IMG/VR virus record: IMGVR_UViG_3300008448_000045
Coordinates: 12,824-76,823 of that record
DNA from: a virus
DNA length: 64,000 nucleotides
Direction: 5' to 3' (one strand)
The stretch's first letter is position 1; the number at the start of each line of letters is the position of its first letter. A model generated the notes under the pieces. It ran no database searches. It was not told the DNA's origin and saw only the letters and a list, made by a program, of their open reading frames with translations. The translations under genes and the position numbers were made by a program. Shown one piece after another: positions 1,295 through 58,973 of the stretch.

Positions 1295-1305
1295 CAAGGG
1301 AAGCT

Positions 1306-3132: not shown

Positions 3133-3143
3133 GGAGAGACAAT

Positions 3144-3590
3144 ATGTCTTCTAATGCTAATTTATACGACAAAATAACCTTAACAGGCAAACCAAAAACT
3201 GTTTCTAATATTACACCTAAAACATATAAAGGTTTTAGCACAGTTAATACATCAACAGAGAATTTTGGATTGTTTGATTTTGAATTAATCAAACAAGATC
3301 TTATTAATATGTTTAATATCCGCATGGGCGAGCGTCTGATGCAACCTGAGTTTGGTACTATTATATGGGACCTATTATACGAACCTATGACAGATGAAGT
3401 TAAGTATGCAATTCAAGAAAATGTTAATACAATTATAAATTACGACCCCCGAATAAGAGCAGAGCAGGTAATTGTAACACCGTATGAAAGCGGAATACAA
3501 ATAGAATGTGTGCTATCATATTTGCCCTATAACATACAACAATCATTGCAAATTAGATTTGACCAAGAAAACGGATTGTTGATGGCATAA
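3144..3590 (+). CDS. Baseplate wedge protein gp25-like
   Basis: LIKQDLINMFNIRMGERLMQPEFGTIIWDLLYEP...YDPRI matches the GPW/gp25 signature. Confidence 0.9.
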   Translation: MSSNANLYDKITLTGKPKTVSNITPKTYKGFSTVNTSTENFGLFDFELIKQDLINMFNIRMGERLMQPEFGTIIWDLLYEPMTDEVKYAIQENVNTIINYDPRIRAEQVIVTPYESGIQIECVLSYLPYNIQQSLQIRFDQENGLLMA

Positions 3591-3612
3591 TATATGCACT
3601 TAATTGTATTCG

Positions 3613-3619
3613 ATAAATA
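3613..3619 (+). promoter_or_regulatory. Putative T4-like late promoter core ATAAATA
   Basis: Intergenic, 20 nt before gp6. The same heptamer precedes three other structural genes. Confidence 0.55.
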
Positions 3620-3639
3620 TTGATATAATAGGATAAATC

Positions 3640-13100: not shown

Positions 13101-16100
13101 AAACTAATCTACAAGTAACAAATGCTGTTTATAAGACTGATACTAAAGAATTAATAATTACTACAAAAACTAACGTTAATTTAGTTCCGGGTACTTACAT
13201 TGGAATTAATCAAACTAAAAAAATTAATGGATTTTATAAAATAAATTCTGTTAATAAAGATTCTTTTACAGTCTCAGCAATAATTACACCGGCCCCTGCA
13301 AAGTTTGAAGATCAAAAAAGTATCCTTATTTTTAAGTTTGACCCTCAGCGAATATCGTCAATTGACCTAGCAGATGAAGTAACACCGGCGTATCCTAACG
13401 CTGGGGAAATAATTTGGACGGACGACGCCGGAAATGGTAAGTGGGCTTCTTGGAAGTATACACCTGTATATGACGAGAATAGAATTGCTAACATTTCTCC
13501 TGCATATAATTTGCAAGTTGGAAAACAGGTTGCTATAAATTCGGCCTCAACTATTGCAGCATCTTCTAGCTTAACTGGAACGGTGACAGTTTATGACAGG
13601 CCTAATTTACTTTCTCCTTGGATTTTAAGAGACGACATTGATCCACCTTTTATTTCTAATCAACAGTTAGGCGTGGAAACATCTAGATACGAAGGTAGCG
13701 TCCTTTCTATAACAAGTGATGCAAGATGGTTAGCAACCGGAACGCCAACAGCAAGTAGAGTTACAACAAAATATTTAGGTAACTGGAACCAATCAACATC
13801 TTATCAAGTAGATGATATTGTTTCCTTTAACAACACGTTTTGGAAAGCAATCCAAACATCGTCAGCGACCCAACCGTCTGCAACTGGGACTAAATGGGAC
13901 GAGATTTATTATATTCCTGTAAATCGTTCTGGAAATAATTCGTCTTTAGTGGGACAGGGTATCATTTCCTTGTACCAAAAAGACAGTAACAACATTTTTA
14001 CCTTAGTCGATAGTATTGTTAGTCCAGAGCCTAGTGCTAATGAAAACTTTGGTTCTACTATTACTTTTGGAAATAATTGTTTGTTTGTTGGAGCTACTGG
14101 CTCAGATAACAGCAGCGGAAAGGTATATCAGTTTAACTACGAAACTATTGTAATGGCGTCGAGTCCTTATAATCCTAGCGGTAGCAACGGTACTAGATTA
14201 AAAGTATCATCTACTGTCGGTATATCAGCAGATATGCTAGTTTCTGGTATAGGTTTCAATAAAGGGCAATATGTAGTATTAATTCTTGATTCTACAACAC
14301 TTCAACTAAGCGACCCGCCAGATCAAACGCCTGACGGTATTTTAAATTTTACTGTTACTAAGTGGAAGTATGTAGGTAAAAAAACCGCAGGATCGCAAGC
14401 AAAAATTCAATTTGGCAAATCAATTGCAATTAGCAAAGATTCGTCTACTCTGTTGATTTCAGCACCAGGCACAACCACCTTCTTGACAAACAACACAGTA
14501 GATGTTAACGGAATTGTTTTTGTTTATAAAAATATTGGAAATAATATATATGAACAATCTCAAGATCCAATTGTTGGTGCAGATGTAAAATTTGGTGAAG
14601 GATTGGCTGTTTCAGACACTGGAGAATATATAGCAATATCTTCGGTGTTGTTTGATGGTTTAAAATTAGATCAAGGAAAAGTTTTAGTTTATAAAACAAC
14701 AACATCTACAACTGCGGTACATGCATCAGATCTTATTCCTGGCAGAGTATATAAAATTAATTCTGCTGGATCAACAAACTTTATAAATGCCGGAGCATTT
14801 GAAAATAAAGTAGGCGAAACATTTACTGCTACAAATAATTTAGTAGTAGCTCAAGGAAATCTTGAAGTAGGAAAATCTTACAAAATTTCTTCAATTGGAA
14901 CAACAGATTTTACTCTTATCGGAGCAGCATCAAATACACTAGGATTAGAGTTCATTGCAACATCTACTGGTACAGTAGGGTCAAGATTTTTAGTAAACGG
15001 AAAAACTTATAGAATAAAAACATTAGGAGATACTAATTGGGCTAGTGTTGGCGCAGTTTCTGCTACCTTCGAAGCAAGCATTATAAATGCAACCATGACA
15101 GTGTTTTCAGTAGCATCGGGAACACTACAGCCAGAGCAAGGTATTTCTGGAGTCGGAATCGTTGCGGGTACTTATATTATAAATCAACTCACTGGCACAC
15201 CAGGCCAAGCAGGCACATATACAGTTAGTATCAACCAGCCATCTTTAGTATCAAATACTACTGTAAAATCTTTTGCTGTTGGAATGACATTCCAAGCAAC
15301 TGGCGCTAGCTCAGCCCTTGCAACCGGAACAGCCGTTCAAGGAACCGGCGTTGTTACTACAACAGGTATAGTAAATCAAATTTTATATACCCAGTATCAA
15401 GAAATTTTAAGTAAGACACCTGGGGTAGCAGAATTTTTTGGATCTAAAATATCATTCTTAAATGATTCAGAAAGCCTTGTAATTTTTAGTCCCAATGCTA
15501 CAGTTAAAAACATTGTTACTTTTGATAATAATGGAACTACATTCGACGATGAGACAACGGACTTTTTATATAATAAACCAAATACTGGTCGAGTAGATGT
15601 TTATGATAAGTATTCAGAAAAATGGATCTTTGCTGAAAGCCTTACGAATAAAACTCAAGGTTCAGGCTACGGACATGCAATAGCTGTTGGCTACAATACA
15701 GTATTAGTTGGAGCACCTTACGAGTATGATAGATTTAGTTTCTCAGGAAAAGTTTTTACATATCAAAAATTAAGAAATTCTTATAGCTGGAAAATTTTAA
15801 ATTCTGAAGGTAATAAGGTAGATTTAACTAAGATTAAACAGGCGTTTTTGTACAATAGCCGATCTAATAAAGTTATTACACAGTTAGATGTTGTCGATGT
15901 AGTACAAGGTAAGTTACCAAAGATTGCCAACGAAGAAATCAAATATAAAACTTTTTATGATCCAGCAATTTACTCGTCTGGATTAGATAATGTTAATGTA
16001 GACGAAGGCGCCGCCTGGACTAAAGAATATGTTGGGCAACTATGGTGGGATTTAAGAACAGCTAAGTTTATTGACAGTTACGATAAAACTGATGTTGTAT

Positions 16101-19100
16101 ACAGAAATAGTACTTGGAATACGCTGTTTCCTGGTGCAAGCGTGGATGTATATGAATGGGTAGAAACTACACTAACACCAGATCAGTGGAATGCTCAAGC
16201 AGACACTGATGCCGGGCTGTCAAACGGAATTAGCGGAACTTCTTTGTATAATAACACTACCTATAGCATAGTTAAACGATACGATCGCATTTCAAAGTCT
16301 TTTAAAAATACCTATTACTATTGGGTAAAAAATAAAAAGACTATTCCAGCAAATAAATCTAGAATAATATCAGCTATTGATGTGGCAAATTTAATTGCCA
16401 ACCCTAGAGGTGCCGGCTATAAATTCTTAGCATTAACAAGTGAAAATAGTTTTAGTCTTGTTAATGTACAACCGTTATTAGATAATAAAGATGTTATTTT
16501 AGGAATAGAATATTGGAATACAGAAAATATTGATCAGAACATTCATAGTCAATGGAAAATTATCAGTAATACTGACCGAGATGTAATTCCTAAAAACATA
16601 GAACAAAAATGGTTTGATAGTCTTTCTGGCAAAGACTTATACGGAAGGCCCGTGCCCGATCCGCTATTACCTCCAAAGTTAATGTTTGGAATTGAAAATA
16701 GACCCCGCCAGGGAATGTTTATTAATCGATTTGAAGCGTTAAAACAATTCATCGAAACTGTAAATTTAACTTTAGCAGGTTATCAATTAGTAGGACAAAA
16801 AAATCTTACTTCTTTTGATCAGTACGAACTAGAACCATCAAAAGAAACTACCGGACTATATGATGATGTTAAAGACACAGATGCAGAGTTAAGATTTGCC
16901 AGTGTTGGCTTGTTTAAGAAACCAGTGTTAATTCCAGTTATAGAAGATGGTAAAATAACAGATGTTATCATCGAAGAAAAAGGCAATGGCTATTTAAATC
17001 CACCGTATCTTCAAATTTTTGGAACAGGACAAGATGCAAGTATTAGAACAATTATTAATAGTATAGGTCAAGTAGTCGACATTGATATTATTAATCCAGG
17101 AGAAGGCTACACTTCTAATACTATATTAAGTATTAGAAATTATTCTGTTTTAGTCCATGCCGATAGTCAAGCTCAAGGTGTATGGAGTATATATTCTTAT
17201 GATTCTGATACTCTTTTATGGACTAGAGAAAGATCTCAGAGTTATGATGTAAGACGCTTCTGGAATTTTATAGATTGGTATGCATTAGGATATAATCAAT
17301 TTACTTCTGTAGATTACATTGTGAATAGTTTTTCTGATTTAATTAGCCTAGATACAGCAGTTGGACAAACTGTAAAACTTACATCGTCGTCAAGCGATAG
17401 TACATGGTTATTATTAGAAAAATATACTAATTCGGAATCAGTTGATTGGACACAAAGTTATAAAGTTATTGGAAGAGAAAAGGGCACAATACAGTTAAGT
17501 CCGGCTTTGTATAATTTTGAAAATACAGTATTTGGATACGATGGCTCTTTATATGATGGTACAGTTTTTGATAGCGCAGCATCAAAAGAATTACAAATTA
17601 TGTTAGAGTCAATAAAAAATAATATTTTTATTGATGATTTAAGATCTAAATATTTAGAATTATTCTTTAATAGTATTCGATATGCATTTAGCGAACAAAT
17701 TTATGTTGACTGGGCTTTTAAAACTAGTTTTGTACGAGCTCAACATAATGTTGGAGAATTAAGACAGCCAGTAACTTACAAAAATGACAATCTAGAAAAT
17801 TTTGAAGATTACATAGACGAAGTTAAGCCTTACAGAACAATTATAAGAGAATACATTAGCTCTTATGATTCAACTGATGTTGTATCTTCTTCTGTAACAG
17901 ATTTTGACTTAATACCTGCTAGCGAAGACAAACAATCACGATCAATAATAACAGAAGTTGTTAATGGTAAAATACTTGCCAAAGATAATTTAATTAATAG
18001 TTATCCTTGGAAATTTTGGCTTGATAATATAGGTTTTGTTGTAACTGAAATTAAAGTTACAAGTGGCGGATCTGAGTATAAAACTGAGCCGACAGTTAGA
18101 ATAATCAGCAACTCTGGAACGGGAGCATCAGCAAAGGCTTTTGTTGCTAACGGCCAAGTAACTAGAGTTGTTGTTGTTGAGAACGGTGCTGGATACCTAA
18201 GTGCTCCTCAAATTGTTATAGAAGGCGGCACCCGAGGCACAGTTGCTAAGGCAATCGCAGTTATAGGTGATTCTGTAGTAAGGTCTAACAAAATTCAAAT
18301 TAAATTTGATAGAATAACTTATAATTATTTTCTCAATCAGTTAGAATCAGTTGACACACATACTGGAACAAATACTAAATTTCAGTTTCCGTTAACATGG
18401 GCACCCGATGTTAGAATTAATAAATCAACAGTTTCCATTAAGTTAGCAAACACAACAGAATTTAACGAAGTTCTTAGAGATACTTATAAATTATCTATCG
18501 TTACGTCTTTAGTAAACGGGTCTACACAATATAGCGGATCAATTACATTTAATTCAGCGCCACCTAAGAATTCAACAATTAAAATTGAATATTTAAAGGA
18601 TTGGTCTTTATTAAATGCAGCTGACAGGATACAGTATTATTACAATCCGTTAGACGGAATGCCGGGAAAAGATTTAGAACAGTTAATGGACGGTATTGAT
18701 TACGGCGGAGTCCAAATTTTAGGATTAGGATTCGAAATTGGCCAAGGATGGGATAGTTTACCTTTCTTTAGCGATAGATGGGATTCCTTTGATTCAGAGT
18801 ATGACGATTATGTAACTACAATATCTGATATAAATGAAAATACATTTATCTTAAATTATGTTCCAAATGCAGGTACTAAATTAAATGTTTACCATGCTAA
18901 GTTAGTAGTTGATAATGTAGTATCCGATGGAGCAAATTTAAGATATCCGTATGATGCATTAGGTAGAAATCAAGTAGTAACAATTTTAACACCTACAACA
19001 AATCAAGCAATTGGCATACTTGTAAATTATGTTCCGACTGGCAGTAGCGGAACTACGTTAAAAGTTTCAAGCACAGTTGGAATCGAACCAAACATGACAG

Positions 19101-47474: not shown

Positions 47475-48458
47475 TTATTCTCCTTGGTATTTGGCTTGGA
47501 ATGGTTCTGCATATTGCTGAACATTGTCTGCAACCTTTTTCATATCCCATGCATTACAGAACTTTAATAAACGAATACCAACTTGTGTTACATCCTTAGG
47601 AACACAGTCGACTTTAATAGTTTTACTAATAAGTTCTTTAATGTTTTCTGGTTGATATTTTAGGTCAATTAATCGACGATTGCGTTCGTAGTCATCTAAG
47701 ACGCGATGCTCTGCACCTTCGTGGTCAACCCATCTCTGCAGCATGAGATTATTCCACGAATAGCCTTTGCTTTTACGATCTTCGAACGCTTCAGTAAGAC
47801 CCACTTTGTTTTTTGTGCCTTTAACACGCACACCCGGATACGCCGAGAAGACATTATCACTGGTATCACCACGCATACACTTCTCAAACAATAACCATTC
47901 TGGGTGAACTTCTTTTGGTTCTTTTGTTTTTTTATCAACAACACGTTTACCCTTTGCATCAAAAATACCTTCGTGTGTAATATGATGTTCTTGTACACCA
48001 TTATACTGGCTAACATTTGGAGCAATTAATTGATAAAAGTCGCTGTCAGTTGAAATGATTACGTGATTGTCATCGGTATGACTTTGTATAAATCCAGCAA
48101 TTAAATCATCTGCTTCTAGTTGTGGATGATGTAAAACTGTACAGTTAGTTTTTTCAATGATAAAGTTTTTAAATTCATCAAATGCTTCCCAGAACAATTT
48201 ATCTTCTTCTTGTTCTTTAACAGTCATAGCTGCACGAGTTTCGCTGCGATTACGTTTATAAGGCTCGTAAAAGTCCTTACGCCACGAACGACCTTCGAGG
48301 CAGAACACTACATGTTTCCCCTCAAAGTCATTCCATGCTTTTTTAATACTATTAAAGGTAATATGAAAAGCCATTCCTAGCTTAATATCACTAGATCCTT
48401 GAACAACATGTCTAGCACGAAAAAAAGTATTGGCTGTATCAACCAAAATATATGTCAT
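47475..48458 (-). CDS. rnh: T4-type RNase H / 5'-3' flap exonuclease
   Basis: ILVDTAN, SWRKDFYEPYKRNR, EADDLIA, IISTDSDFYQL, GDTSDNV, YERNRRLIDL. Confidence 0.88.
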   Translation of the reverse strand: MTYILVDTANTFFRARHVVQGSSDIKLGMAFHITFNSIKKAWNDFEGKHVVFCLEGRSWRKDFYEPYKRNRSETRAAMTVKEQEEDKLFWEAFDEFKNFIIEKTNCTVLHHPQLEADDLIAGFIQSHTDDNHVIISTDSDFYQLIAPNVSQYNGVQEHHITHEGIFDAKGKRVVDKKTKEPKEVHPEWLLFEKCMRGDTSDNVFSAYPGVRVKGTKNKVGLTEAFEDRKSKGYSWNNLMLQRWVDHEGAEHRVLDDYERNRRLIDLKYQPENIKELISKTIKVDCVPKDVTQVGIRLLKFCNAWDMKKVADNVQQYAEPFQAKYQGE

Positions 48459-49033
48459 ATGTAATATTCCATGTCTGCAGCAAAAACAAATCTGTAATCA
48501 TCTGAGTCTATGATTCCAGGCCTATGCCATATTTTACTAGGATATATGACCCAAGTCAACTCCTTTGGTTTTAAGTAAAAAATATCTTTTTTGGTTGGCC
48601 AATCCATACAAAATTCTGTGCCAGCTGTATCTTGATTAGTAATTGACTTAGGAATATCCGCATACCAAACACCGCTAATTGAATTAGTTGTTCCGTTATT
48701 GTTACTCAAATGGTGTGTGTGCCAAAGGTCGTCTCTATCCTCAACTTCGTTTTGACTGGTCATAAAACACCAAGCCATCATGTTTTTAATTTTAACTTCA
48801 CCGCCTAAAAATTGAAAAACAGAATAAATGAAACTTTGTCTCATTTTTAAAAAAACTGCTTCGTTGCGAGCAAACAAGTTTTCTTGTGTTTGAAACTTTG
48901 GACTATTTTTAAAATAATTGCCAGAGTCAATAATTTGTTTAACTACAGAAGTTAATTGATTCATATCTTCTTGTTTAATTAAAGAAGACCAGTCGTATAA
49001 ATCAATATATTCATTCTTATCAACAACTACCAT
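48455..49033 (-). CDS. Putative 2OG-Fe(II) oxygenase / DSBH protein
   Basis: WHTHH..ISGVWY..GTEF..VIYPSKIWHRP..YRFVFA fits an HxH...H...R DSBH pattern. Confidence 0.55.
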   Translation of the reverse strand: MVVVDKNEYIDLYDWSSLIKQEDMNQLTSVVKQIIDSGNYFKNSPKFQTQENLFARNEAVFLKMRQSFIYSVFQFLGGEVKIKNMMAWCFMTSQNEVEDRDDLWHTHHLSNNNGTTNSISGVWYADIPKSITNQDTAGTEFCMDWPTKKDIFYLKPKELTWVIYPSKIWHRPGIIDSDDYRFVFAADMEYYI

Positions 49034-49461
49034 TAGCTAGCCTCTGATTTATCTTTAGTTATTTTGTTTATATTAATGAATCCTGCTCCACGACTAGCAT
49101 CCATACCTTCGTCGGTTAGCATATTTCTAACAATGTCTCGAAACCATCGATCTACAATTTCTTCTTCAGGATCTCCATCAAACCCGTACCCAGCTTTTTT
49201 TAAATCTAAAATAAAGTGTGCATTCCAATCAAGCTCAAAAAAACCGTTACGAGGATTATCCTTATTAACTTTAGTGTCTAATACTGAAACCCACGGTTCT
49301 CCTTTTTTAGTAGCACGTTCTTTTGGAGTTAGTTTTGCAAGCTCTTCTTTTTCTTGTGCTAGAACTGTTTCTGCTATTGCCTTATCTCTAGCGTCTTGAA
49401 GATTTTGTTTTTCTAATTCTATTTTATCAATGCCAAACAACTTTCTAATTATTTTTTTCAT
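49033..49461 (-). CDS. Hypothetical protein
   Basis: Likely start MKKIIRK with TAATG overlap to queE; PWVSV..NGFFELDWN..EEIVDRWF. Confidence 0.6.
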   Translation of the reverse strand: MKKIIRKLFGIDKIELEKQNLQDARDKAIAETVLAQEKEELAKLTPKERATKKGEPWVSVLDTKVNKDNPRNGFFELDWNAHFILDLKKAGYGFDGDPEEEIVDRWFRDIVRNMLTDEGMDASRGAGFININKITKDKSEAS

Positions 49462-50327
49462 TAAGTACCCCACTCATTTTTAAATAATGGCACTTGCAAG
49501 CGGTCACTATAACGTAAACCTGCATTCATTGCCATAATAGCCACTGCTCGATTGTTTAATGCGTAGACACTTTCTACTCCGCCGACTGGCATAAGATAAA
49601 CATGTCCAGCAAATCCAGCCGCACGATATTCTTCAGTTGCACGTTTAGCATCTTCGAAGTCTTGCTCTGTGGCAATAACAAATTTTAGATATGCTGTACC
49701 AACTTGTTCATATTCGCAAACAACTTCTGGAAGTATTGCTTCTTCCCATTTCTCACCACTACACGGAAGTTTGGCACTAACACTAAATGTTAATGCATTA
49801 TATCCTCTTGATTCAATACCCCAATTGAGTAAGTATTCTTTAAATTCCGGAGTAAGTTTTTGAGTACCGTTTGTTTCAAATGTAATTTCTTTTAATCCTG
49901 CCATTTTAGGATGATCTAGCAAATCTGGATAAGCACGTTGCCAACCTAGTAAAGGTTCTCCGCCAGTGATGACTAGATGTTCATCTTTCCATTCGTGGAA
50001 AGGAATAATTTCCATAATGCGATCTACAATAGCATCACTAGTAAGCATTGGACTTAGTTCTTTAAAGCTAGGATGCCAGCTAGCATAACTATCGCAACCT
50101 GTACTAACTAATGGAAGGTCTTCATATTTTTTAAATGGAGGCTCATCGTGAATGTCTTGCAATAGTGCAAGATTGTTTGCCTCTTCGCTTAGTTCACCTC
50201 TAGGCATACCAAAGCCGGCACATTTAAAATTACAACCGAATGTACGTAAGAAAACGGACGGTACACCCATGTAACGTCCTTCGCCTTGTACGCTATAAAA
50301 TAATTCTGCAATTTTTAATTTACTCAT
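49461..50327 (-). CDS. queE: 7-carboxy-7-deazaguanine synthase (radical SAM) with split Cys motif
   Basis: IAELFYSVQGEGRYMGVPSVFLRTFGCNFKC...GCDS, VITGGEPLL, FETNGT, SVSAKL, YLMP, YSDRLQ. Confidence 0.88.
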   Translation of the reverse strand: MSKLKIAELFYSVQGEGRYMGVPSVFLRTFGCNFKCAGFGMPRGELSEEANNLALLQDIHDEPPFKKYEDLPLVSTGCDSYASWHPSFKELSPMLTSDAIVDRIMEIIPFHEWKDEHLVITGGEPLLGWQRAYPDLLDHPKMAGLKEITFETNGTQKLTPEFKEYLLNWGIESRGYNALTFSVSAKLPCSGEKWEEAILPEVVCEYEQVGTAYLKFVIATEQDFEDAKRATEEYRAAGFAGHVYLMPVGGVESVYALNNRAVAIMAMNAGLRYSDRLQVPLFKNEWGT

Positions 50328-50550
50328 TTTCGTTTCTTTCTAAAAACATCGATACTTGATCTTCTGCATCAACATAGCTCTCCGCCCATACTGTAAACGT
50401 AGCAATACCATTCTTTGCACTTATATCAAACGGAACAACTCCGTTGGGTAACCAATTTTCTCCAACCTCTCTTTTAATTTCAAATTTTTGCAAAGCGGTG
50501 GTTTTCATTCTATATATTAGTTCATCGGCAAGTTGCTTTGCGGTTGTCAT
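50320..50550 (-). CDS. Hypothetical protein
   Basis: 76-aa ORF overlapping its neighbours. Confidence 0.55.
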   Translation of the reverse strand: MTTAKQLADELIYRMKTTALQKFEIKREVGENWLPNGVVPFDISAKNGIATFTVWAESYVDAEDQVSMFLERNENE

Positions 50551-50825
50551 ATGATTTCCTTTTCATAAATCTTTGACCATATTTTAAGCTTCTCTGATTT
50601 TTTTTGGCTTGCTTCTAATAGCTCTTGTTGGCTAAAAACTCCATGGTCGACTAACAGTTGTATCATTAACATAACATCACCGGCTTCTTGAGTCAAGTGT
50701 GCTCTCTGAGTACCGCCGTCTTTATAACTATTGTCTAAACCGAATCTACGAATTTTACTAGCAGATACAATTAATTCTCCACATTCTTCTTGCAGGATAT
50801 CTAAGATTTCTTGTATCTTGTTCAT
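50547..50825 (-). CDS. MazG-like NTP pyrophosphohydrolase
   Basis: LQEECGELIVSASKIRRFG...LTQEAGDV (EExxE...ExxD). Confidence 0.7.
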   Translation of the reverse strand: MNKIQEILDILQEECGELIVSASKIRRFGLDNSYKDGGTQRAHLTQEAGDVMLMIQLLVDHGVFSQQELLEASQKKSEKLKIWSKIYEKEII

Positions 50826-51211
50826 ACACAATCTCCTTGCTCTGCTAATTTAGATACTTCTTTATTGCTAGCTTTTACTTTTTTTTGCTTTCTAAATTCT
50901 GCTACATCATTAACAGCAGAGCGTAATGCTTGGGAATAATTAAGAGCTTGTTGTTCATTCATTATAGTACTAACTTCAGTTTCGATATAACCCTTAGTAA
51001 GCAACTTCCAAATTATTTGCCAACGATTTAACCCCCACCAAAGAGATTTCTGTTGTGTGTATATAGTTACAGTAACTCCAGCATCTTCAGCTTCTATCCA
51101 CACATTTTGCATATGGTCAGTACTTGTACATTCACACATAATTGAATAGTGTTTGGCATCGCCGTAATCTCTGTGTACTAAAATTCCTTGTGCTGGTGTT
51201 TGCGGAGTCAT
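50822..51211 (-). CDS. Hypothetical protein
   Basis: 129-aa ORF with a CEC..H motif; ATGA overlaps. Confidence 0.55.
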   Translation of the reverse strand: MTPQTPAQGILVHRDYGDAKHYSIMCECTSTDHMQNVWIEAEDAGVTVTIYTQQKSLWWGLNRWQIIWKLLTKGYIETEVSTIMNEQQALNYSQALRSAVNDVAEFRKQKKVKASNKEVSKLAEQGDCV

Positions 51212-51438
51212 TGTAAATTGGTCTCTATTTTAATAATTTTTACATCGTCTCTTGAATCTGAAATAGTATCAATCATCATTTCAAATTCATTAGGTTTGAG
51301 TATGGTTTTATAAATGCTAAGGGCTTGTGCTAACATAACGCCTGCAACAGAAAGCGGTCGATTACCATTTTCAATTAAATTTACTGTTAATTTCCAGTAA
51401 TTTTGATACGCTTCTTCTAATTTTAAATCATCGTTCAT
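51208..51438 (-). CDS. Hypothetical protein
   Basis: 76-aa ORF with ATGA overlap to folE. Confidence 0.55.
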   Translation of the reverse strand: MNDDLKLEEAYQNYWKLTVNLIENGNRPLSVAGVMLAQALSIYKTILKPNEFEMMIDTISDSRDDVKIIKIETNLQ

Positions 51439-52271
51439 CTTGGGGCAAACTCCTGTTGAAGTTTAATATTGTCAAAGAATTCTTTCTTTGTATTACCATC
51501 TTCTTTAAACGCACCTTTAAGCACCGTAGTTTGTGTCAGTGAGCTATGTGCCATAATACCGCGATTCTCACAGCAACCGTGTGTGGCTTGAATGTATACG
51601 CCTAGATCTTTGGCTCCTGTGGCCTTTTCGATTTCCCTAGCAATGTCATTGCAAAGTTCCTCCTGGAGAGTACCACGTCGGGCACACCACTGGGCAATGC
51701 GTGTGTACTTGCTAAGTCCGATAAGTTTCTCGGCAGCAATAAGACCAATATAAGCAACGCCAGTAACGGGTTGGTGATGATGGCTACACATACTGCGAAG
51801 CTCGCTACGGACAACCAACATACCTTCGTAACGGTCCTGCGAGTCATTTGGAAATGCTGTTGCGTCTGGTGCTTGTTCATATCTACCTGCCATTATTTCA
51901 TTAAAGTACATTTTAGCAAGGCGTCTTGCTGTACCTTTACTATTTGGATCATTTTCACGATCAATCAGCAAGCGATCAAGCACTAGTTCAAATGCTTCTG
52001 TTGCTTCGTTGATAAGTTTATCTTTATGTTCTTCTGTGACATAATCGCTAATATTGTCGCCTGCCCAGAAACGTTTATTGTCACGTTTCATTTTAAAGCG
52101 AATTGTATCTGCTAGATACGCTTCTTCGTATCCTTTGTCGCTCATCATTTCGCCGGCTTTAACGTATACCTTTTGGGGTAAAGGCACATACTGGTCTTCA
52201 AATGTATCCTTTACAAAAGTTTTATCAATTTCTGTATTGAGTGCAGGATCTGGTTTAAATTCGTTTGTCAA
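51435..52271 (-). CDS. folE: GTP cyclohydrolase I
   Basis: TARRLAKMY, SMCSHHHQP, LIGLSKYTRI, RRGTLQE, ATHGCCENRG, GAFKED..KKEF. TTG start with GGAG RBS. Confidence 0.93.
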   Translation of the reverse strand: MTNEFKPDPALNTEIDKTFVKDTFEDQYVPLPQKVYVKAGEMMSDKGYEEAYLADTIRFKMKRDNKRFWAGDNISDYVTEEHKDKLINEATEAFELVLDRLLIDRENDPNSKGTARRLAKMYFNEIMAGRYEQAPDATAFPNDSQDRYEGMLVVRSELRSMCSHHHQPVTGVAYIGLIAAEKLIGLSKYTRIAQWCARRGTLQEELCNDIAREIEKATGAKDLGVYIQATHGCCENRGIMAHSSLTQTTVLKGAFKEDGNTKKEFFDNIKLQQEFAPR

Positions 52272-52722: not shown

Positions 52723-52915
52723 GACCGCCTCCAAATCGTAATCCAGTCATACTACCAAACAGCAGTAAGAATGCCAGCCAAGTATCCCACGCATACGGAA
52801 TCTTTAAAACTGGAAATAAGGTATTTAAAGACCAAATTCCTAAAATAGGTCCTATAACTATTACTAGAACAATTGCTAGTAATGCAACAACTAATTTTAC
52901 TACAGATTTAATCAT
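52709..52915 (-). CDS. Small membrane protein (two hydrophobic segments)
   Basis: Start MIKSVV with ATGA overlap to the PRTase gene. Confidence 0.55.
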   Translation of the reverse strand: MIKSVVKLVVALLAIVLVIVIGPILGIWSLNTLFPVLKIPYAWDTWLAFLLLFGSMTGLRFGGGRGRT

Positions 52916-53460
52916 AACCAAAATTCCTCCCAAGGATAAACTAACCAACAGTCTTCCTCTGCTTTGTTAACGTTCCAAACACTGTAATCTGGATCTTTAA
53001 ATTCACTTGATTGATTGTGCGTTAGAACTGCAAATCGAACGTTATCACCCCATACTTGATTCCATTCAGTATCGTCCGGATAACAGCCGCTTGGCCAATC
53101 TTGTTTAATCCAATCGACAGTAGCGCCTGTATCGTTAATATCGTCAACTATAAGAATTTTCTTTTTAAGTTTCTCAACCCACTTGTTACCACCAAACTCT
53201 GCTCTACGATCAAACGGGACAGAACCTATTGCGTCTTCGGCCATGCCTAAATCACTTACACAGTCTCCGCCGTCACGCAAACTAACTTGTAATGGGCGCA
53301 TTGGAATGCCTGTGTATTGACTCAATAAAATAGCAGGAACAGCACCGCCTCTAGTAATGCCAACAATATAATCAGGTTTCCAATTGTCTGCTGACATTTG
53401 TCGAGCAATGTCTAAACACGCACCTTCTACTTGTTGCCAAGTGTAATAGACTTTTTTCAT
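52912..53460 (-). CDS. Type I phosphoribosyltransferase (xanthine/guanine PRTase-like)
   Basis: YYTWQQV, IVGITRGG, ILIVDDINDTGAT (PRPP-binding loop), WLVYPWE. Confidence 0.88.
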   Translation of the reverse strand: MKKVYYTWQQVEGACLDIARQMSADNWKPDYIVGITRGGAVPAILLSQYTGIPMRPLQVSLRDGGDCVSDLGMAEDAIGSVPFDRRAEFGGNKWVEKLKKKILIVDDINDTGATVDWIKQDWPSGCYPDDTEWNQVWGDNVRFAVLTHNQSSEFKDPDYSVWNVNKAEEDCWLVYPWEEFWL

Positions 53461-53693: not shown

Positions 53694-54169
53694 TCCTCAT
53701 CTCCTTTAATTGATTCAAATGTTCTATATTTGCCCAATGCATTAATATAGTCGTCATACAACTTCTTTAGCTTTGGATGCTTTTTCTCTAGTTTAATATC
53801 TCTTTCAGGAATACACAAGACTTTTTCAATTGTGTTTAACCGTTCTTCTAAGTCTTGTCCGTTAAGTATCATCTTACCTTTGACTTCCAAACTAGCAGGA
53901 TCTTGTTTAACAATCATTACGTTGTCATTTGGATTGGCCCAACTTGTTCCGTTAGTAGCACTTGTTAAAAACTGGCCGGCAGTGGTATTGGTTGTATAAA
54001 CTTGCCCAGATCCCCCGCCGCCACCGCCAAAGATTGATACAGTAGATCCAACAGCTCCAATACTGTTAGTAGCTATAGTAACATTTCCTGCTGGCGGAGT
54101 AGGTCCGTATCCTGCTTGATAACCGCCGTTAGATATTGTGTGTTTTCCTGTTGCGTAAGTAGTTGTCAT
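53690..54169 (-). CDS. Hypothetical protein (Gly/Thr-rich N-terminus, helical C-terminus)
   Basis: LEERLNTIEKVL..KHPKLKKLYDDY. Confidence 0.55.
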   Translation of the reverse strand: MTTTYATGKHTISNGGYQAGYGPTPPAGNVTIATNSIGAVGSTVSIFGGGGGGSGQVYTTNTTAGQFLTSATNGTSWANPNDNVMIVKQDPASLEVKGKMILNGQDLEERLNTIEKVLCIPERDIKLEKKHPKLKKLYDDYINALGKYRTFESIKGDEE

Positions 54170-54614
54170 TGTGTATCCATTTATTCTTTACAAGAAATCC
54201 CCATTCTCGTTTTTGTGGCCCCGGCATAAACAAAGTCCAAGCTGTTACACCGTCCTTAAGCTCAATGCGATGATATGAATTAGAACTGCAAACACGGAAA
54301 TGACCTGGCCCACGCCATAAACGATGTTCACCAATCATAACCCCGTTAACAAATTGTGGAACCCATTCGTAGTATCCACCTTTTAATATTAATGTAGCAT
54401 ATGGCCACGGATGATCGTGGACATCATCCGGATCTCCTTTTAGGAACTTGTGTAAAAATACATTAAATGGAAATTTTTTTCTTTCTTTTAAGAAAAGATA
54501 ATATCTTTCCAAATAAGGCTCGTTATCTACACGGTCAAATATAATTCTCTTTCTGCCGGCTTTTTCAAGAAAACTAAGGAATTTATTTTTGAGTGTCTGG
54601 ATTATCATAATCAT
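54129..54614 (-). CDS. Cupin-fold protein
   Basis: LHKF..DVHDHPW..ILKGGYYE..SYHRIEL..WTLF (metal-binding HxH...E...H). Confidence 0.7.
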   Translation of the reverse strand: MIMIIQTLKNKFLSFLEKAGRKRIIFDRVDNEPYLERYYLFLKERKKFPFNVFLHKFLKGDPDDVHDHPWPYATLILKGGYYEWVPQFVNGVMIGEHRLWRGPGHFRVCSSNSYHRIELKDGVTAWTLFMPGPQKREWGFLVKNKWIHNDNYLRNRKTHNI

Positions 54615-54972
54615 CCTTTACAAGTTTGTAAGTAGTCTTAAATTTTTCAAAGGCAATTTTAAGACCTGGATAAATGTCACACATTTTTTGTATTCGATCC
54701 CATTCCGGAAAACTATTTGACCATTCTTCAGGCGGATTAAAAATAAAAGATTCTAAATCAGTTGCGCTAATTGGGCCAAGAGTTACTGTACTAATATTAC
54801 CTGGGGTAGTGTACATAGTACTGTTGTCAATATAAATTTGATTAGAACCACTACCTCCAGATATAGTTATAGTATCTGAAGATGCATAATCATAACCAAC
54901 ATCGATAGTTATATCACCGATATTATCATCGGATATTGTCAAGTATTCTGTTTGCTGAGAAGAATTGCTCAT
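54583..54972 (-). CDS. Hypothetical protein (Ser/Thr-rich N-terminus)
   Basis: C-terminal MCDIYPGLKIAFEKFKTTYKLV. Confidence 0.55.
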   Translation of the reverse strand: MSNSSQQTEYLTISDDNIGDITIDVGYDYASSDTITISGGSGSNQIYIDNSTMYTTPGNISTVTLGPISATDLESFIFNPPEEWSNSFPEWDRIQKMCDIYPGLKIAFEKFKTTYKLVKDDYDNPDTQK

Positions 54973-55999
54973 ATAACATCTCCTTTTGTTTGTTAAGCAT
55001 AGGGAGTCGAGTCTTGTAGTTATCCATGTGCTCTATAATTTTAGAGCATATATCTGGTCTATATACTGTGTAGGCATCAAAACTTTCAGTCCACTTGCTA
55101 GGATACTTAAAAGTATCAAAATACATCTCTGTATAACTAAGTCTGTCTGGCACCATAGGAATAGCATCTACTACAGCACCTTCATAACAACTAATACCTA
55201 ATGTTTCTTGTAAATTAGCACTGAACACTATCTTTGCTTCACCTAACAAGTTATGATATTCATTTTTTGTTAGCTGTTGATCCTGACACACAATAAATTC
55301 ATACTGTGGTAGATGTTCTTTTAAATCTCGAAAGATTTCAACTTGCTTTTCTGGAGCAATGCGATGCGGAAATAATATGAGATCTCTTTTAGGCATATTT
55401 TTATACGGATTTAAAATATCTTCCATATATTCCATAGGCCAACCTGTACGCACTATTTTATTGCTGTTAATATATGACAGTTTTGCTGTTTCATAATCTA
55501 TGCTTAGTAGATTATGAGCAAACATATCAATATGAAAGTCTGTGGCAAAGTAGTTGTGATCAAACGCATGGAAGAAACTCTTTTCAGCATTTCTAACCCA
55601 AGGTGTATCACCTACAAGACGTCCTAAGAAGTCTTGTGGATCATAACTACCTGCATGCCAAAGTCCGTGTGTAATAACTGGAATGCCCAGCAACTCGCTC
55701 ATGTACTTTAAGTTGATGATACCCGGGTGCCAAGCATCAGTAAAAATAAAGTGATCGCCGGGATGAACGGCTCCGTTGCAAAATAAGCGGCCCATCTGCT
55801 CCACTTGTGCTGACTTATAAACATTGGTACCGCCAAAATTAAGGAAAGCACCAGGAGTAGTGGCTGAAGGAATATCCGCAGGGCCAGATAAAATTTGAAC
55901 ATTGTGACCTGCCTTTTTTAATAATTTAGGTATATGGGTCTTCCATTGACCCGTATACCTTGTCTCAACTGATTCTAAATCAACTAAAAATATTGTCAT
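54926..55999 (-). CDS. GT-B (GT4-like) glycosyltransferase resembling DUF3524/GTDC1
   Basis: FPHRIAPEKQ, IVFSANLQETLGISCYE (E-x7-E motif), PMVPDRLSYTEMY. Confidence 0.78.
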   Translation of the reverse strand: MTIFLVDLESVETRYTGQWKTHIPKLLKKAGHNVQILSGPADIPSATTPGAFLNFGGTNVYKSAQVEQMGRLFCNGAVHPGDHFIFTDAWHPGIINLKYMSELLGIPVITHGLWHAGSYDPQDFLGRLVGDTPWVRNAEKSFFHAFDHNYFATDFHIDMFAHNLLSIDYETAKLSYINSNKIVRTGWPMEYMEDILNPYKNMPKRDLILFPHRIAPEKQVEIFRDLKEHLPQYEFIVCQDQQLTKNEYHNLLGEAKIVFSANLQETLGISCYEGAVVDAIPMVPDRLSYTEMYFDTFKYPSKWTESFDAYTVYRPDICSKIIEHMDNYKTRLPMLNKQKEMLYEQFFSANRILDNIR

Positions 56000-56259
56000 T
56001 GGTTATAGCGTGGCTTATTGCCTTGATAAGGCTTGCGCTCACCACTCCAAGGCTTTTTCTCACCGTTCCACGGTTTACGTGGGCGTGTACTCTTTTCATA
56101 GTTACGCCATTGCCAACTTTCTCTATTGTAAAGATGAGCTTCGTTAAATTCAATCAATTCCAAACGACAGTAGTTATGGAATGCTTCCAAGTCGTCAAAG
56201 ATTTTGACAATGTCGGGGCGAGTTTCGAGATAGTTGATATCGTTATAATTTTTAGCCAT
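55996..56259 (-). CDS. Hypothetical protein with basic repetitive tail
   Basis: KPWNGEKKPWSGERKPYQG repeats; ATGA overlap with the GT gene. Confidence 0.55.
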   Translation of the reverse strand: MAKNYNDINYLETRPDIVKIFDDLEAFHNYCRLELIEFNEAHLYNRESWQWRNYEKSTRPRKPWNGEKKPWSGERKPYQGNKPRYNQ

Positions 56260-56274
56260 TGCAGCCTCTTATAG

Positions 56275-56670
56275 TTAGTACTTAATAAATGAACCATTTT
56301 CTCCGTCTTCGGAGACCTCAATCCAAACCTCACGGTCTGGATACTTTGTGTGAATCTGAGCATATAAGTCATCGCTCATCATCTCACAACTCTTATAGTC
56401 TAGCGACAATACACCTTCGTTGCTAGAATACAATTTTTCCAACCATCGTTTGAATTGTATAAATTCCACATCTCTGTCATTGTGGGTAACACTAAGATAA
56501 ACCCTAAAATGAAAAATATGGCGATGGGGATTAGCCAAAAACGAGACATCATATTCATCTCCTGTTGCTAGATTGGGATCAGTTGCGGCTGCGGGATATT
56601 TGTGAATACCTTCTTTTCGAAAGGTAACCCAAATCATTTTATGTGGACGTATATCTTGTTTAATAATCAT
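56275..56670 (-). CDS. dpdL: QueD/PTPS-paralogous T-fold protein, DpdL type
   Basis: EGIH..FLANPHRHIF (LxxxHRHxF in place of CxxxHGH)..SCEM..IEVSEDGENG. Confidence 0.65.
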   Translation of the reverse strand: MIIKQDIRPHKMIWVTFRKEGIHKYPAAATDPNLATGDEYDVSFLANPHRHIFHFRVYLSVTHNDRDVEFIQFKRWLEKLYSSNEGVLSLDYKSCEMMSDDLYAQIHTKYPDREVWIEVSEDGENGSFIKY

Positions 56671-57185
56671 TTGATAATTTCGTCGTTTTTATATTGTGAC
56701 CAGTCTGTGAACTTACTACGATCCATTAGTGTATGTAGACTGTGGGACCATACACCGGGATTAGTTGCTTTAAAATCTTTGTCATCAATTTTAAGCATTG
56801 TATTATAATTCCATAATTTAATATAAGGAATTGGAATTCTAATTTGCGGGATAAAGTTATCGTATTCGCAATACCCACTCTCGTGAAATTCTTCAACTTG
56901 ACTTAAGGGAATATCTAAAGAACAAAGATAACCTTTTTCTAAAAAGAAGAAAATCATTTCCTCCCACTGTTTATGGTTATCATATCCTTGCGGATTAAAA
57001 CTATGATTAGCACCAAAGAAAATATGATTAATTTTTTGATTAACTAATGCACCTTCAATTGCGTCAATCGGTTGAATATCAACTACAAATAATGTATTCA
57101 TACCATATGCCGGCGTGTGTTCTACTTCTTTGCCAAAGAAGAATACAACACTACTCGATTGCCCATCTGTATAATCACGATTCAT
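56667..57185 (-). CDS. Hypothetical protein in the deazaguanine locus
   Basis: EVEHTPAYG, HIFFGANHSF, KIDDKDFKATNPGVW; overlaps both neighbours. Confidence 0.6.
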   Translation of the reverse strand: MNRDYTDGQSSSVVFFFGKEVEHTPAYGMNTLFVVDIQPIDAIEGALVNQKINHIFFGANHSFNPQGYDNHKQWEEMIFFFLEKGYLCSLDIPLSQVEEFHESGYCEYDNFIPQIRIPIPYIKLWNYNTMLKIDDKDFKATNPGVWSHSLHTLMDRSKFTDWSQYKNDEIIK

Positions 57186-57426
57186 TTTTATTTTGCTCGT
57201 ATTGTTTGAATAAACGGGTTACTTCTTCCATGCGTTCTGCAAATACATGCGGGCTAGCTTCGGCTGCTTGTTGCATGTCCCAACTATTAGGGTAGTGACG
57301 TAGGCAACCGCTAGCTCGTTGCCTAATGATTTTAGGAACTTTGGGTGTAACAGTACGGTCACATAAATCCTTTAGTAGTTGTTCTGCCATTTTAACAGCA
57401 CGATATCGTTCATCTGGTAAGGTCAT
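57175..57426 (-). CDS. Hypothetical protein
   Basis: MTLPDERYRAV..LRHYP; ATGA overlap with the TGT-like gene. Confidence 0.6.
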   Translation of the reverse strand: MTLPDERYRAVKMAEQLLKDLCDRTVTPKVPKIIRQRASGCLRHYPNSWDMQQAAEASPHVFAERMEEVTRLFKQYEQNKNES

Positions 57427-58973
57427 TCTTTTACCTGTAATTCTAGCTGGTCTAATTTTGATTCTTCTTCGTCAGTAAATTCGTCACTATGCTCTGATTG
57501 TAGTGTATTTGAATCTGTTTCGTCAAATAGATTGGCAAACATAGTGCTAGCATTGACAGTCTTTTTACCAGTAGCTCCCCTAGTGCCAATGATACTCATC
57601 CAAAAACGACTATATTCTTCAACAACAGCATCGGCAGTACCTCTATCACTAGTTGCAAAAATAGCTTCTACAATATCTTTAAAGAATAGTCTATCAAATT
57701 TCTCTTGTACCAACATAGCTGGAACATTGCCAGCATCATATTTTCTATTAGCTTCTTGTACAGCATTAATATGATGCCAAACATTGTGCCCCATTTGAAT
57801 GGCATAGCTAAAACTATCCCATGAAGTTTTACCTTCTTTGCCTATTTTATTTAGGTCGCCGGGCTTATAGATACAAATATCTTTAATTTGACACTGATCA
57901 ATTATTGGACTTGATTCAAAGTTTTTAAAGATGCCATCTTGTATTACCGCGTCTTTGAAGAGACGAGTATCCGCGGCATATTTTTTGTCATCTGCACTAG
58001 CTTGCATTCTGTAGACCCACTTAGTTCTGTCTTCTGTTTCTGTTTGGATGTAGATTTGTCCGTTTGCTGTTGCCAAAAACGGTGAGGCGCAGTCAAAAGA
58101 TATGGTAAAGTTTTCATTATGATATTTCCTTACAGCACGTTGAATGTCTGTGAGCAAAGTTGCCCACTCCAATTTTGATGTTCCTAAGAAGTGCATCCAG
58201 TCTTGTTTGCCTTTTTCTAGTAGTCCATCAAATCTTAGTGCCACTAACCGCTTTAGCGTTAAGTGTACATCGCACATATTCTGTCCGCCCATAGCCCAAC
58301 CGTTAAAAGCACGGTCACCATAGACTTTAGGATCGCAATACTTCTTCATTCTATCATACCAATCATCTGCATCAGTATGATTTTCACCTTGAAGAACATT
58401 TAAGAATTTACAATTGCCATTACGATTGTTTACGAACCAATCATTGTTAATATATGTTCCTTGCACTGCTTCTGCGTATGTAGTAATACCTGTGGCTTTT
58501 TGTCCAGCAGGACTACGAGCTACCCAAGCAGGAATATCTAAACACATACCATAGTCCATAAGTGCATCCATCCACTTAAGAACTTGTTCACGTTTCTTTT
58601 GTGCTTTAGGACAGTTAGGATTTTTCCAGTCACCTTCCCACACACCTTTACCAATTTGGAAACCACCTGAATCACCAAGTACCCAACTAGTACTACGATT
58701 GCGATTACGGAACATGTCTTCGCTTTCGTCTTGTTTATTGAGATCTAAATTAGCGTGACCTGCAGAGTATAGACAGTGGTCATAGTAAAATAACCCTTTG
58801 TCCGGGTCTAAATAATTTAGGCTTTCTATCCCATTAGTAAAGCTAGCGGGGATACGGGCAGGGTCAACATAGTTGCCATACCGTTGTTTGCCTATAAATG
58901 TAGCATAAAATCCTGACGTTGCTGGCAGGAAATATGCGTAGTCATTTTGAGCTATTGTTAAGTTCTTATTCAA
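57423..58973 (-). CDS. TGT/DpdA-like guanine transglycosylase (7-deazaguanine insertase)
   Basis: GDSGGFQ, MCLDIP, NVLQG, GWAMGG, MHFLG, ISFDCASP and terminal HN, all in TGT order. TTG start. Confidence 0.8.
   Translation of the reverse strand: MNKNLTIAQNDYAYFLPATSGFYATFIGKQRYGNYVDPARIPASFTNGIESLNYLDPDKGLFYYDHCLYSAGHANLDLNKQDESEDMFRNRNRSTSWVLGDSGGFQIGKGVWEGDWKNPNCPKAQKKREQVLKWMDALMDYGMCLDIPAWVARSPAGQKATGITTYAEAVQGTYINNDWFVNNRNGNCKFLNVLQGENHTDADDWYDRMKKYCDPKVYGDRAFNGWAMGGQNMCDVHLTLKRLVALRFDGLLEKGKQDWMHFLGTSKLEWATLLTDIQRAVRKYHNENFTISFDCASPFLATANGQIYIQTETEDRTKWVYRMQASADDKKYAADTRLFKDAVIQDGIFKNFESSPIIDQCQIKDICIYKPGDLNKIGKEGKTSWDSFSYAIQMGHNVWHHINAVQEANRKYDAGNVPAMLVQEKFDRLFFKDIVEAIFATSDRGTADAVVEEYSRFWMSIIGTRGATGKKTVNASTMFANLFDETDSNTLQSEHSDEFTDEEESKLDQLELQVKE

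Follow-up and report, generated by a model that had tools for sequence, protein, structure and literature searches.

The described systems of 7-deazaguanine modification in phage DNA (reportedly Hutinet 2019 and Cui 2023) comprise DpdA and FolE, QueD, and QueE together with DpdL, DpdM, DpdN, or Gat-QueC, and none of the eight DNA deazaguanines described carries a sugar. To our knowledge, animal tRNA (manQ and galQ) and a few antibiotics are the only places in which deazaguanines with a sugar have been described. The HuiG and dapiramicin glycosyltransferases attach a sugar directly to a 7-deazaguanine scaffold (in huimycin, at the 2-amino group), HuiG using UDP-GlcNAc as donor and a free deazapurine base as acceptor in actinomycete secondary metabolism. 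In tRNA, QTMAN (GTDC1) transfers mannose from GDP-mannose to queuosine-34 of tRNA-Asp. The acceptor of QTMAN is a 7-deazaguanine nucleoside that is already part of a nucleic acid (PMC12518689). Here, we analyzed a glycosyltransferase (GT) gene in a 64,000-nucleotide stretch (hereafter the window; positions 12,824 to 76,823) of the IMG/VR virus record IMGVR_UViG_3300008448_000045, a 76.8-kb contig whose completeness of about 21% (CheckV) implies a jumbo phage of about 350 kb. On balance, we think that this GT glycosylates the deazaguanine base of phage DNA, after the base has been inserted, as a dedicated accessory enzyme of the deazaguanine pathway.

Like the described phage deazaguanine systems, the window has FolE, QueE, DpdL, and DpdA-like genes, placed beside replication genes. 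Its GT resembles the T-even alpha- and beta-glucosyltransferases and the base J glucosyltransferase in having a GT-B fold and in its predicted role, i.e., the addition of a sugar to a modified base after replication and the evasion of nucleases; however, their acceptor is the hydroxyl of a hydroxymethyl-pyrimidine, whereas the base predicted here is a 7-deazapurine without a known hydroxyl handle, and no specific sequence relationship between them was found. HuiG likewise differs in its target, which for the phage GT is predicted to be DNA. The closest likeness is to QTMAN, with which the GT shares the GT-B architecture, a length of about 360-380 amino acids (aa), the motifs HRxxxxK, [D/E]-x7-E, and P-[D/N]-R-L-[S/A]-Y-x-E, an 'EP' in the first strand, and the substrate context of a 7-deazaguanine base in nucleic acid; it differs in an N-terminal domain that PF12038 does not recognize and in its predicted target (DNA, and not the tRNA of QTMAN). 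Since the phage clusters mostly cannot make queuosine, the acceptor would not be the cyclopentenediol of queuosine.

The GT is predicted to be a soluble two-domain GT-B enzyme of the retaining GT4 type. Its AlphaFold2 model, for which a family alignment of 55 relatives (28-54% identity) was the input, has a mean predicted local distance difference test (pLDDT) score of 96 and a predicted template modeling score of 0.92, and shows two Rossmann-like domains separated by a cleft. Over its full length, it aligned with retaining GT-B enzymes both in Foldseek and in an exhaustive scan of structures: more than 20 GT4, GT5, and GT20 structures, including PimA/B, matched at Z 20-25, with BshA, sucrose-phosphate synthase, glycogen synthase, and PglA at the top (Z 22-25). 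T4 alpha-glucosyltransferase (1y6f), an alternative raised by an earlier reading of the letters and open reading frames alone (the sequence-only reading), matched in fold (Z 18.4, rank 35), beneath many GT4 enzymes. The diphosphate motif is H212-R213...K218 (HRxxxxK), with R213 and K218 at least 90% conserved in the 55 sequences, and it is followed by E265-x7-E273 (E265 at least 90% conserved, E273 invariant) and by a distinctive conserved loop, PDRLSYxE (P284-DRLSY-x-E291); the strings quoted in the sequence-only reading (FPHRIAPEKQ, IVFSANLQETLGISCYEG, and AIPMVPDRLSYTEMY) are all present in the translation. Generic GT4 enzymes (BshA, MshA, PglA, sucrose-phosphate synthase, and glycogen synthase) have the E-x7-E and the R/K diphosphate site in common with the phage GT, so the same retaining chemistry is likely, and by analogy with the family we would expect an alpha-linked product, made from an alpha-linked nucleotide sugar with its anomeric configuration retained. 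Their sequence similarity to the phage GT is nevertheless at noise level, and the phage GT has H-R for the usual G-R and PDRLSYxE for the usual glycine-rich loop. The window GT had no match in Pfam, PHROGs, or NCBIfam, and PF00534 (Glycos_transf_1) did not match it even at E ≤ 10; in the relatives, PF00534 matched weakly in 41 of 55 (best E 6.5e-7). A search of the PDB with the single sequence gave nothing meaningful, and a search with the family profile gave the Actinobacillus minor glucosyltransferase 8xsg (weak, E 1e-4) and generic GT4 enzymes; neither search gave a sequence match to a T4 glucosyltransferase (alpha or beta).

This open reading frame is a real gene and not a chance frame, because it has more than 8000 matches among database proteins at E ≤ 0.001 (the best 120 of them at 80-100% identity), an exhaustive search at the same threshold gave 1138 clusters (50% identity), and the model reaches the pLDDT given above. 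The family is large and almost purely viral. The protein-atlas clusters nearest to the GT are 95-100% viral and GT1-type, with no QTMAN_N among them, and at least five groups of cultured phages carry a member (PA5oct, ACP17, Phosso, BUDD, and BCSR5 are named here). No match was found in a near-identity DNA search among isolated phages, no related viral loci were obtained with two distant family members as queries, and no fused form of at least 626 aa was found in the search. The only matches in prokaryotic genomes were two short contigs of metagenome-assembled genomes (10.8 and 4.6 kb; 75% and 66% identity), assigned to Crocinitomicaceae (L092) and Erysipelotrichaceae (L093), both of which are probably phage DNA binned with bacterial genomes.

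The sequence-only reading had likened the C-terminal half of the GT, by eye, to the GTDC1/DUF3524 family. The motifs behind that likeness are real; they lie, however, in the C-terminal domain and not in the N-terminal domain that defines DUF3524 (now QTMAN_N, PF12038), which in QTMAN is joined to a GT1-type C-terminal domain. PF12038 matched nothing in the viral record at E ≤ 10 and was absent from the families listed for the 55 scanned relatives. In 301 Bacteroidota genomes, it had matches in 77 (proteins of 365-430 aa, E 1e-39 to 1e-66), from which 23 proteins were extracted as a comparison set. The Bacteroidota proteins (E 1e-44 to 1e-66) have HRWEYDK, D-x7-E, and PNRLAYPE, and these align without gaps with HRIAPEK, E-x7-E, and PDRLSYTE of the phage GT. 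Profile-profile comparison (hhalign) of the phage family with QTMAN gave a probability of 99.5%, E 5e-23, and a score of 170 over 275 columns, compared with a best score of 38 (E ~1e-4) among 19 control groups made from 30 generic PF00534 proteins, which are thin alignments and come from only five of the same Bacteroidota genomes. A hidden Markov model (HMM) of the phage family likewise matched every one of the 23 QTMAN-like proteins (at 52-73 bits) and no protein among the 30 generic ones, so that when GTDC1/DUF3524 is set against generic GT4, as had been suggested, QTMAN is clearly the closer relative. Most of this signal comes from the C-terminal domains, which alone gave E 2e-23 and a score of 142. 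The N-terminal domains alone aligned weakly (33% probability, E 5e-4, score 30.6, 138 colinear columns) with EP, a His, and D..F..S/T.[FY]H as common positions; the best of the 19 N-domain controls scored 22.5, below that value, and was not colinear. By these comparisons, the phage GTs are best described as a putative sister family of QTMAN that is not a member by Pfam's definition, and the kinship appears to run chiefly through the donor site, the N-terminal acceptor domain having apparently been remodelled. In Bacteroidota, QTMAN_N proteins are common, often as two paralogues per genome, and at four of the loci checked one of them adjoins mutL; EEP nuclease and GNAT genes are further neighbors. 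No queuosine genes were found beside these genes at the loci checked, which is uninformative, and we know of no function for the bacterial QTMAN_N proteins.

The GT is linked to deazaguanine genes wherever the family was sampled. Among 50,697 isolated-phage records, the GT was found in 22 and DpdL in 29, and 17 records had both, compared with 0.013 expected. When the GTs of isolated phages and metagenomic viruses were grouped at 60% identity, 11 lineages resulted, and in all 11 the GT stands beside 7-deazaguanine genes, in differing gene orders. DpdL is at the locus in 10 of the 11 lineages and lies within 1.5 kb of the GT in seven, and FolE, DpdA, and QueE recur; thus, the proposed link to deazaguanine modification genes holds in every lineage sampled, and the tightest partner of the GT is DpdL, not the TGT-like gene. 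The start of the GT is overlapped by DpdL in Sinorhizobium phage Phosso and by the DpdA gene in PA5oct and ACP17, where DpdL directly follows the GT. The order in Xanthomonas phage BUDD is GT, tRNA-guanine transglycosylase (TGT), DpdL, and QueE, the TGT/DpdA gene abutting or overlapping the GT, and in Burkholderia phage BCSR5 the order is GT, a protein of 446 aa, QueE, and FolE, DpdL lying 3 kb upstream. GT and DpdL are directly adjacent or overlapping in L088/L089, and DpdL lies about 200 nucleotides (nt) upstream of the GT in L157. FolE and, elsewhere in the genome, a PTPS/QueD are present in each of the five complete genomes with a GT that were tested.

In the eleventh lineage (the PhiXhv-12/Ep026 group), Gat-QueC, two genes upstream of the GT, takes the place of DpdL; in PhiXhv-12 it is annotated as GlmS (glutamine-fructose-6-phosphate aminotransferase) and consists of GATase and QueC domains (E 2e-49). 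Among the five complete genomes, QueC was above the family cut-off only in PhiXhv-12, the match in BUDD being sub-threshold. At this locus (PV764601.1, 115242-131982; locus positions 498-9755), Gat-QueC heads a run in which the GT homologue comes after a PIG-L deacetylase and before a GFO/IDH/MocA oxidoreductase. Upstream stand a large GNAT protein and a gene resembling Leu/Phe-tRNA-protein transferase; the run looks like an island for a more elaborate deazaguanine hypermodification with a sugar or amino acid. Two GT paralogues occur in IMGVR_UViG_3300032291_002550 (L089; 1772-2956 and 7001-8095), one adjoining FolE and the other directly after DpdL.

Because the linkage spans gene orders, DpdA subfamilies, and two branches of the pathway, the GT is tied to the deazaguanine pathway as such. 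It is quite unlikely, in our view, that its acceptor has nothing to do with deazaguanine (hydroxymethyl-pyrimidine DNA, a protein, a lipid, or a polysaccharide) and that the synteny merely reflects a shared position in the replication module: GT4 acceptors are very diverse, the window GT belongs to no curated family, and T4 alpha-glucosyltransferase is among the fold matches, but the association survives changes of gene order, DpdA subfamily, and even deazaguanine branch, the GT was found only in pathway-bearing phages (with FolE and PTPS in each complete genome tested), and the way in which PA5oct DNA resists restriction suggests a modified G (PMC12191111). The same gene neighborhoods bear on a second reading, in which the GT is a functional analogue of QTMAN that tunes translation by adding a sugar to queuosine, or to another deazaguanine, in the tRNA of host or phage. 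The specific homology to the QTMAN family and the presence of Q34 in four tRNAs of bacterial hosts speak for it, yet the N-terminal acceptor domain has diverged so far that the HMM no longer recognizes it, the GT sits in DNA-modification clusters that mostly lack QueC and hence make neither preQ0 nor queuosine, and several phages show translational coupling of the GT to DpdL or DpdA; we regard this as very improbable.

Within the window, the two key neighbors of the GT could be identified. The gene proposed in the sequence-only reading to be DpdL-like ends 276 nt upstream of the GT and has both the motif LANPHRHIF and homology to the DpdL of phage phiST (tblastn, 32% identity, E 3e-9); LxxxHRHxF is the DpdL signature, and the enzyme is proposed to be a 7-carboxy-7-deazaguanine decarboxylase yielding 7-deazaguanine (PMC10516641). 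The active-site His and Glu and an invariant Ser-Cys-Glu are common to DpdLs with and without a nearby GT. This Ser-Cys-Glu is present in all aligned DpdL proteins and corresponds to S94-C95-E96 in the window; the loss of the catalytic Cys of QueD in DpdL is discussed in the same source, the available parts of which do not mention the conserved Cys of S-C-E (PMC10516641). The TGT-like gene was likewise found where it had been placed, 1.4 kb upstream of the GT (within about 1.5 kb), and its TGT fold is supported by an AlphaFold2 model (pLDDT 89) whose top 50 Foldseek matches in the PDB are all tRNA-guanine transglycosylases (E ~2e-7). The protein is 34% identical to PA5oct EST35_0316, which is encoded directly upstream of the PA5oct GT, and BLAST connects it with ACP17 DpdA3 and the BUDD TGT. 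The window QueE is homologous to those of PA5oct, ACP17, and BUDD. No canonical QueD (PF01242) or QueC was found in the 76.8-kb record, which is a fragment of about 21% of a genome.

The combination of FolE, a PTPS-like DpdL, and a GT also resembles the biopterin-glucoside pathway, and tetrahydrobiopterin glucosyltransferase (BGluT) structures are among the fold matches (5zer, Z 20.6; 9v0l). We consider it hardly credible, all the same, that the GT is a pterin glycosyltransferase like cyanobacterial BGluT making a pteridine glycoside: BGluT ranked beneath many other GT4 enzymes, QueE and DpdA stand beside the GT in most lineages, and one lineage pairs the GT with Gat-QueC and not with DpdL. 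In addition, the catalytic Cys of PTPS/QueD is missing from DpdL, and the DNA of phiST, a phage with DpdL, contains the deoxynucleoside of 7-deazaguanine, dDG (PMC10516641).

In the mechanism we propose, FolE, a QueD activity encoded elsewhere, and QueE would make 7-carboxy-7-deazaguanine (CDG), DpdL would process it (by the published proposal, through decarboxylation to 7-deazaguanine, DG), and the TGT-fold DpdA-like enzyme would exchange the base for guanine in phage DNA. The GT would then flip out the deazaguanine in DNA and add a sugar from a nucleotide-sugar, in parallel to QTMAN acting on queuosine in tRNA, and the outcome would be a larger hypermodified G, which would block the nucleases of the host. 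Four elements of this scheme are inferred: that a deazaguanine is the acceptor, that the sugar is added to DNA once the base is in place, that the linkage is alpha, and that the modification protects the phage. No other enzyme family common to all GT loci was found, for instance one that might supply a hydroxyl handle, and for this reason the product of the pathway itself is the likely acceptor. Possible sites for the sugar would be ring C7 or C8, N2, O6, or the carboxyl of CDG, or an extra step might supply a handle; for attachment to a ring nitrogen, huimycin and dapiramicin offer a precedent on the free base. Consistent with a modified G, the DNA of PA5oct, which has the GT, resists enzymes with G in their sites (PMC12191111), and in phiST, which has DpdL and DpdA3 without the GT, plain dDG replaces all G (PMC10516641).

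Glycosylation could also precede insertion. The acceptor of the GT would then be DG or CDG as a free base, or a nucleotide made by the neighboring phosphoribosyltransferase (PRTase), and the glycoside would be inserted or would serve as an intermediate or soluble product. The tightest partner of the GT is indeed DpdL, for which the free base was modelled as substrate (PMC10516641), and not DpdA; the GT family is acidic; a PRTase-like gene is in the locus; and the biosynthesis of huimycin and dapiramicin includes the N-glycosylation of 7-deazapurines as free bases. Against this, the pockets of TGT-fold enzymes accommodate small bases, which makes it improbable that DpdA would use a hexosylated one. 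The homologue QTMAN and every known phage DNA glycosyltransferase work on the nucleic acid polymer, and the PRTase is not conserved across lineages. We therefore rate this order of events as rather unlikely. Together, the pre-insertion, tRNA, pterin, and unrelated-acceptor explanations fit the linkage data less well than glycosylation of deazaguanine in DNA.

Several points weigh against glycosylation of deazaguanine in DNA. With the N-terminal domains only weakly alike, the kinship to QTMAN speaks mainly on the donor site. Retaining GT-B enzymes almost always glycosylate oxygen, and 7-deazaguanine, the product proposed for DpdL, is without a hydroxyl acceptor. None of 270 GT homologues carries a DpdL, DpdA, QueE, or FolE domain. 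The family is acidic (median isoelectric point 5.7) and not basic, as a DNA-binding enzyme might be, a proxy that is not decisive. Finally, all GT loci lie in replication modules, and the synteny with PolB and clamp genes could partly be module architecture. If the missing hydroxyl is taken at face value, a QTMAN-derived GT that puts the sugar directly on the dDG ring (C7, C8, or N2) in DNA, with no hydroxyl handle, so that a sugar-bearing 7-deazaguanine would take the place of guanine in these phages, is a possibility that we hold only tentatively.

The features of the locus are collected in Table 1. The GT is part of a co-oriented block, with an RNase H/flap-nuclease-like gene on one side and clamp and PolB genes on the other, and its ATG shares an ATGA with the stop codon of the 87-aa open reading frame upstream, homologues of which hold the same position in 80 of 82 closely related loci and in the distant lineage L162/L163. 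The 172-aa protein, present in 72 of the 82 close loci, is 31% identical to a 161-aa open reading frame directly upstream of the DpdA of Acidovorax phage ACP17. The phosphoribosyltransferase-like gene occurs in 49 of the 82 loci and weakly in PA5oct. The cupin-like gene, possibly encoding an oxygenase, occurs in 66 of the 82 and in no other lineage, and is unrelated to the cupin domain of L162 described below; the gene resembling a 2OG oxygenase is likewise restricted to the lineage of the window. As for the MazG-like gene of the window, phiST gp039, directly upstream of phiST DpdL, is also annotated as MazG-like.

Table 1. Features at the glycosyltransferase locus, with positions in the window
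Feature	Position	Strand	Evidence
2-Oxoglutarate (2OG)-Fe(II) oxygenase-like, putative, at the edge of the locus	48455..49033	-	Pfam 2OG-FeII_Oxy_5, E 4e-5, below cut-off
QueE, 7-carboxy-7-deazaguanine synthase, radical SAM	49461..50327	-	NCBIfam, E 1e-15 to 3e-10, below equivalog cut-offs
MazG-like nucleotide pyrophosphohydrolase	50547..50831	-	Pfam MazG, E 8e-4, below cut-off
GTP cyclohydrolase I (FolE), first step of deazaguanine synthesis	51435..52271	-	NCBIfam FolE, E 2e-39
Purine/pyrimidine phosphoribosyltransferase-like	52912..53460	-	Pfam Pribosyltran, E 1e-11; phrog_8995
Cupin-like (phrog 'cysteine dioxygenase'), two genes downstream of the GT	54129..54614	-	phrog_4786, E 4e-39; no Pfam match
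QTMAN-related GT-B (GT4-like, retaining-type) glycosyltransferase, 357 aa	54926..55999	-	Open reading frame, AlphaFold2 model, fold matches, hhalign
Small open reading frame with basic tail, 87 aa, between DpdL and the GT	55996..56259	-	No family match
DpdL, QueD-paralogous T-fold, 131 aa, LANPHRHIF	56275..56670	-	LxxxHRHxF motif, phiST homology
172-aa protein between the DpdA-like gene and DpdL	56667..57185	-	No Pfam, PHROG, or NCBIfam match
DpdA-like DNA-guanine transglycosylase, TGT fold, 516 aa, DSGGFQ	57423..58973	-	AlphaFold2 model and Foldseek
Truncated nucleotide-sugar 6-dehydrogenase-like, 268 aa	59915..60721	-	Pfam UDPG_MGDP_dh N-terminal and central domains

Genes that may supply or tailor the donor sugar accompany the GT in several lineages. 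In L158 and L162/L163, the GT start is overlapped by a 253-257-aa fusion of a heptose-1-phosphate-adenylyltransferase-like nucleotidyltransferase with a mannose-6-phosphate isomerase cupin domain, and in PhiXhv-12 the GT is flanked by the PIG-L (GlcNAc-type) deacetylase and the GFO/IDH/MocA sugar oxidoreductase. The dehydrogenase-like gene of the window matches TIGR03026 (E 1e-39) over positions 65-297 of 413, lacks the C-terminal domain, and was found in 51 of the 82 close loci and in no other lineage. It ends after the central domain (268 aa versus about 390-440 aa typically), next to the clamp gene, and may be what is left of a truncated gene or else a short form that still functions; its product is a possible donor-sugar tailoring enzyme. 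Sugar-nucleotide genes beside the GT would fit a heavy demand for donor, and the neighbors suggest that the sugar differs by lineage, being manno-type or uronic in some and GlcNAc/GlcN in another.

A few other observations were made at these and related loci. In IMGVR_UViG_3300022200_006040 (L158), a full-length gene for the alpha subunit of dissimilatory sulfite reductase (dsrA; 8539-9867; TIGR02064, E 1e-154) lies about 500 nt downstream of the GT homologue. Two phages without the GT have DpdL in unusual settings: in Vibrio phage Bakedbeans (L156, 6212-7363), DpdL is fused to the C-terminus of the 383-aa protein gp176, whose N-terminal ~260 aa had no Pfam match and are a possible functional partner of DpdL, and in Rhizobium phage RHph_I1_18 (L154, 6974-8235), DpdL (57% identity to that of the window) directly follows FolE and precedes a gene annotated as macro-domain (Appr-1-p processing), an annotation that Pfam at E ≤ 0.01 did not confirm. 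The structural half of the window has a single open reading frame of 4996 aa (7097-22087, + strand).

In the literature searched, we found neither a glycosylated deazaguanine in DNA nor a GT assigned to Dpd-type phage clusters, and a role of the phage GT as a deazaguanine DNA glycosyltransferase is thus a prediction, with strong comparative support from sequence and gene order. If it is true, the product would be a new hypermodified DNA base, and the queuosine-glycosylating enzymes of animals would have viral relatives that work on DNA. If the sugar were attached to the ring, this would be an unprecedented C- or N-glycosylation on DNA by a GT4-type enzyme and would define a new class of modification, glycosyl-deazaguanine. 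Such an enzyme might also become a tool for labelling deazaguanine-containing DNA. The GT family is very abundant in metagenomes and widespread in environmental jumbo phages, and its cultured members make the prediction testable. In PA5oct-like therapeutic phages, the modification may bear on the nature of their restriction-resistant DNA and on the reason why these phages are targets of broad modification-sensing nucleases.

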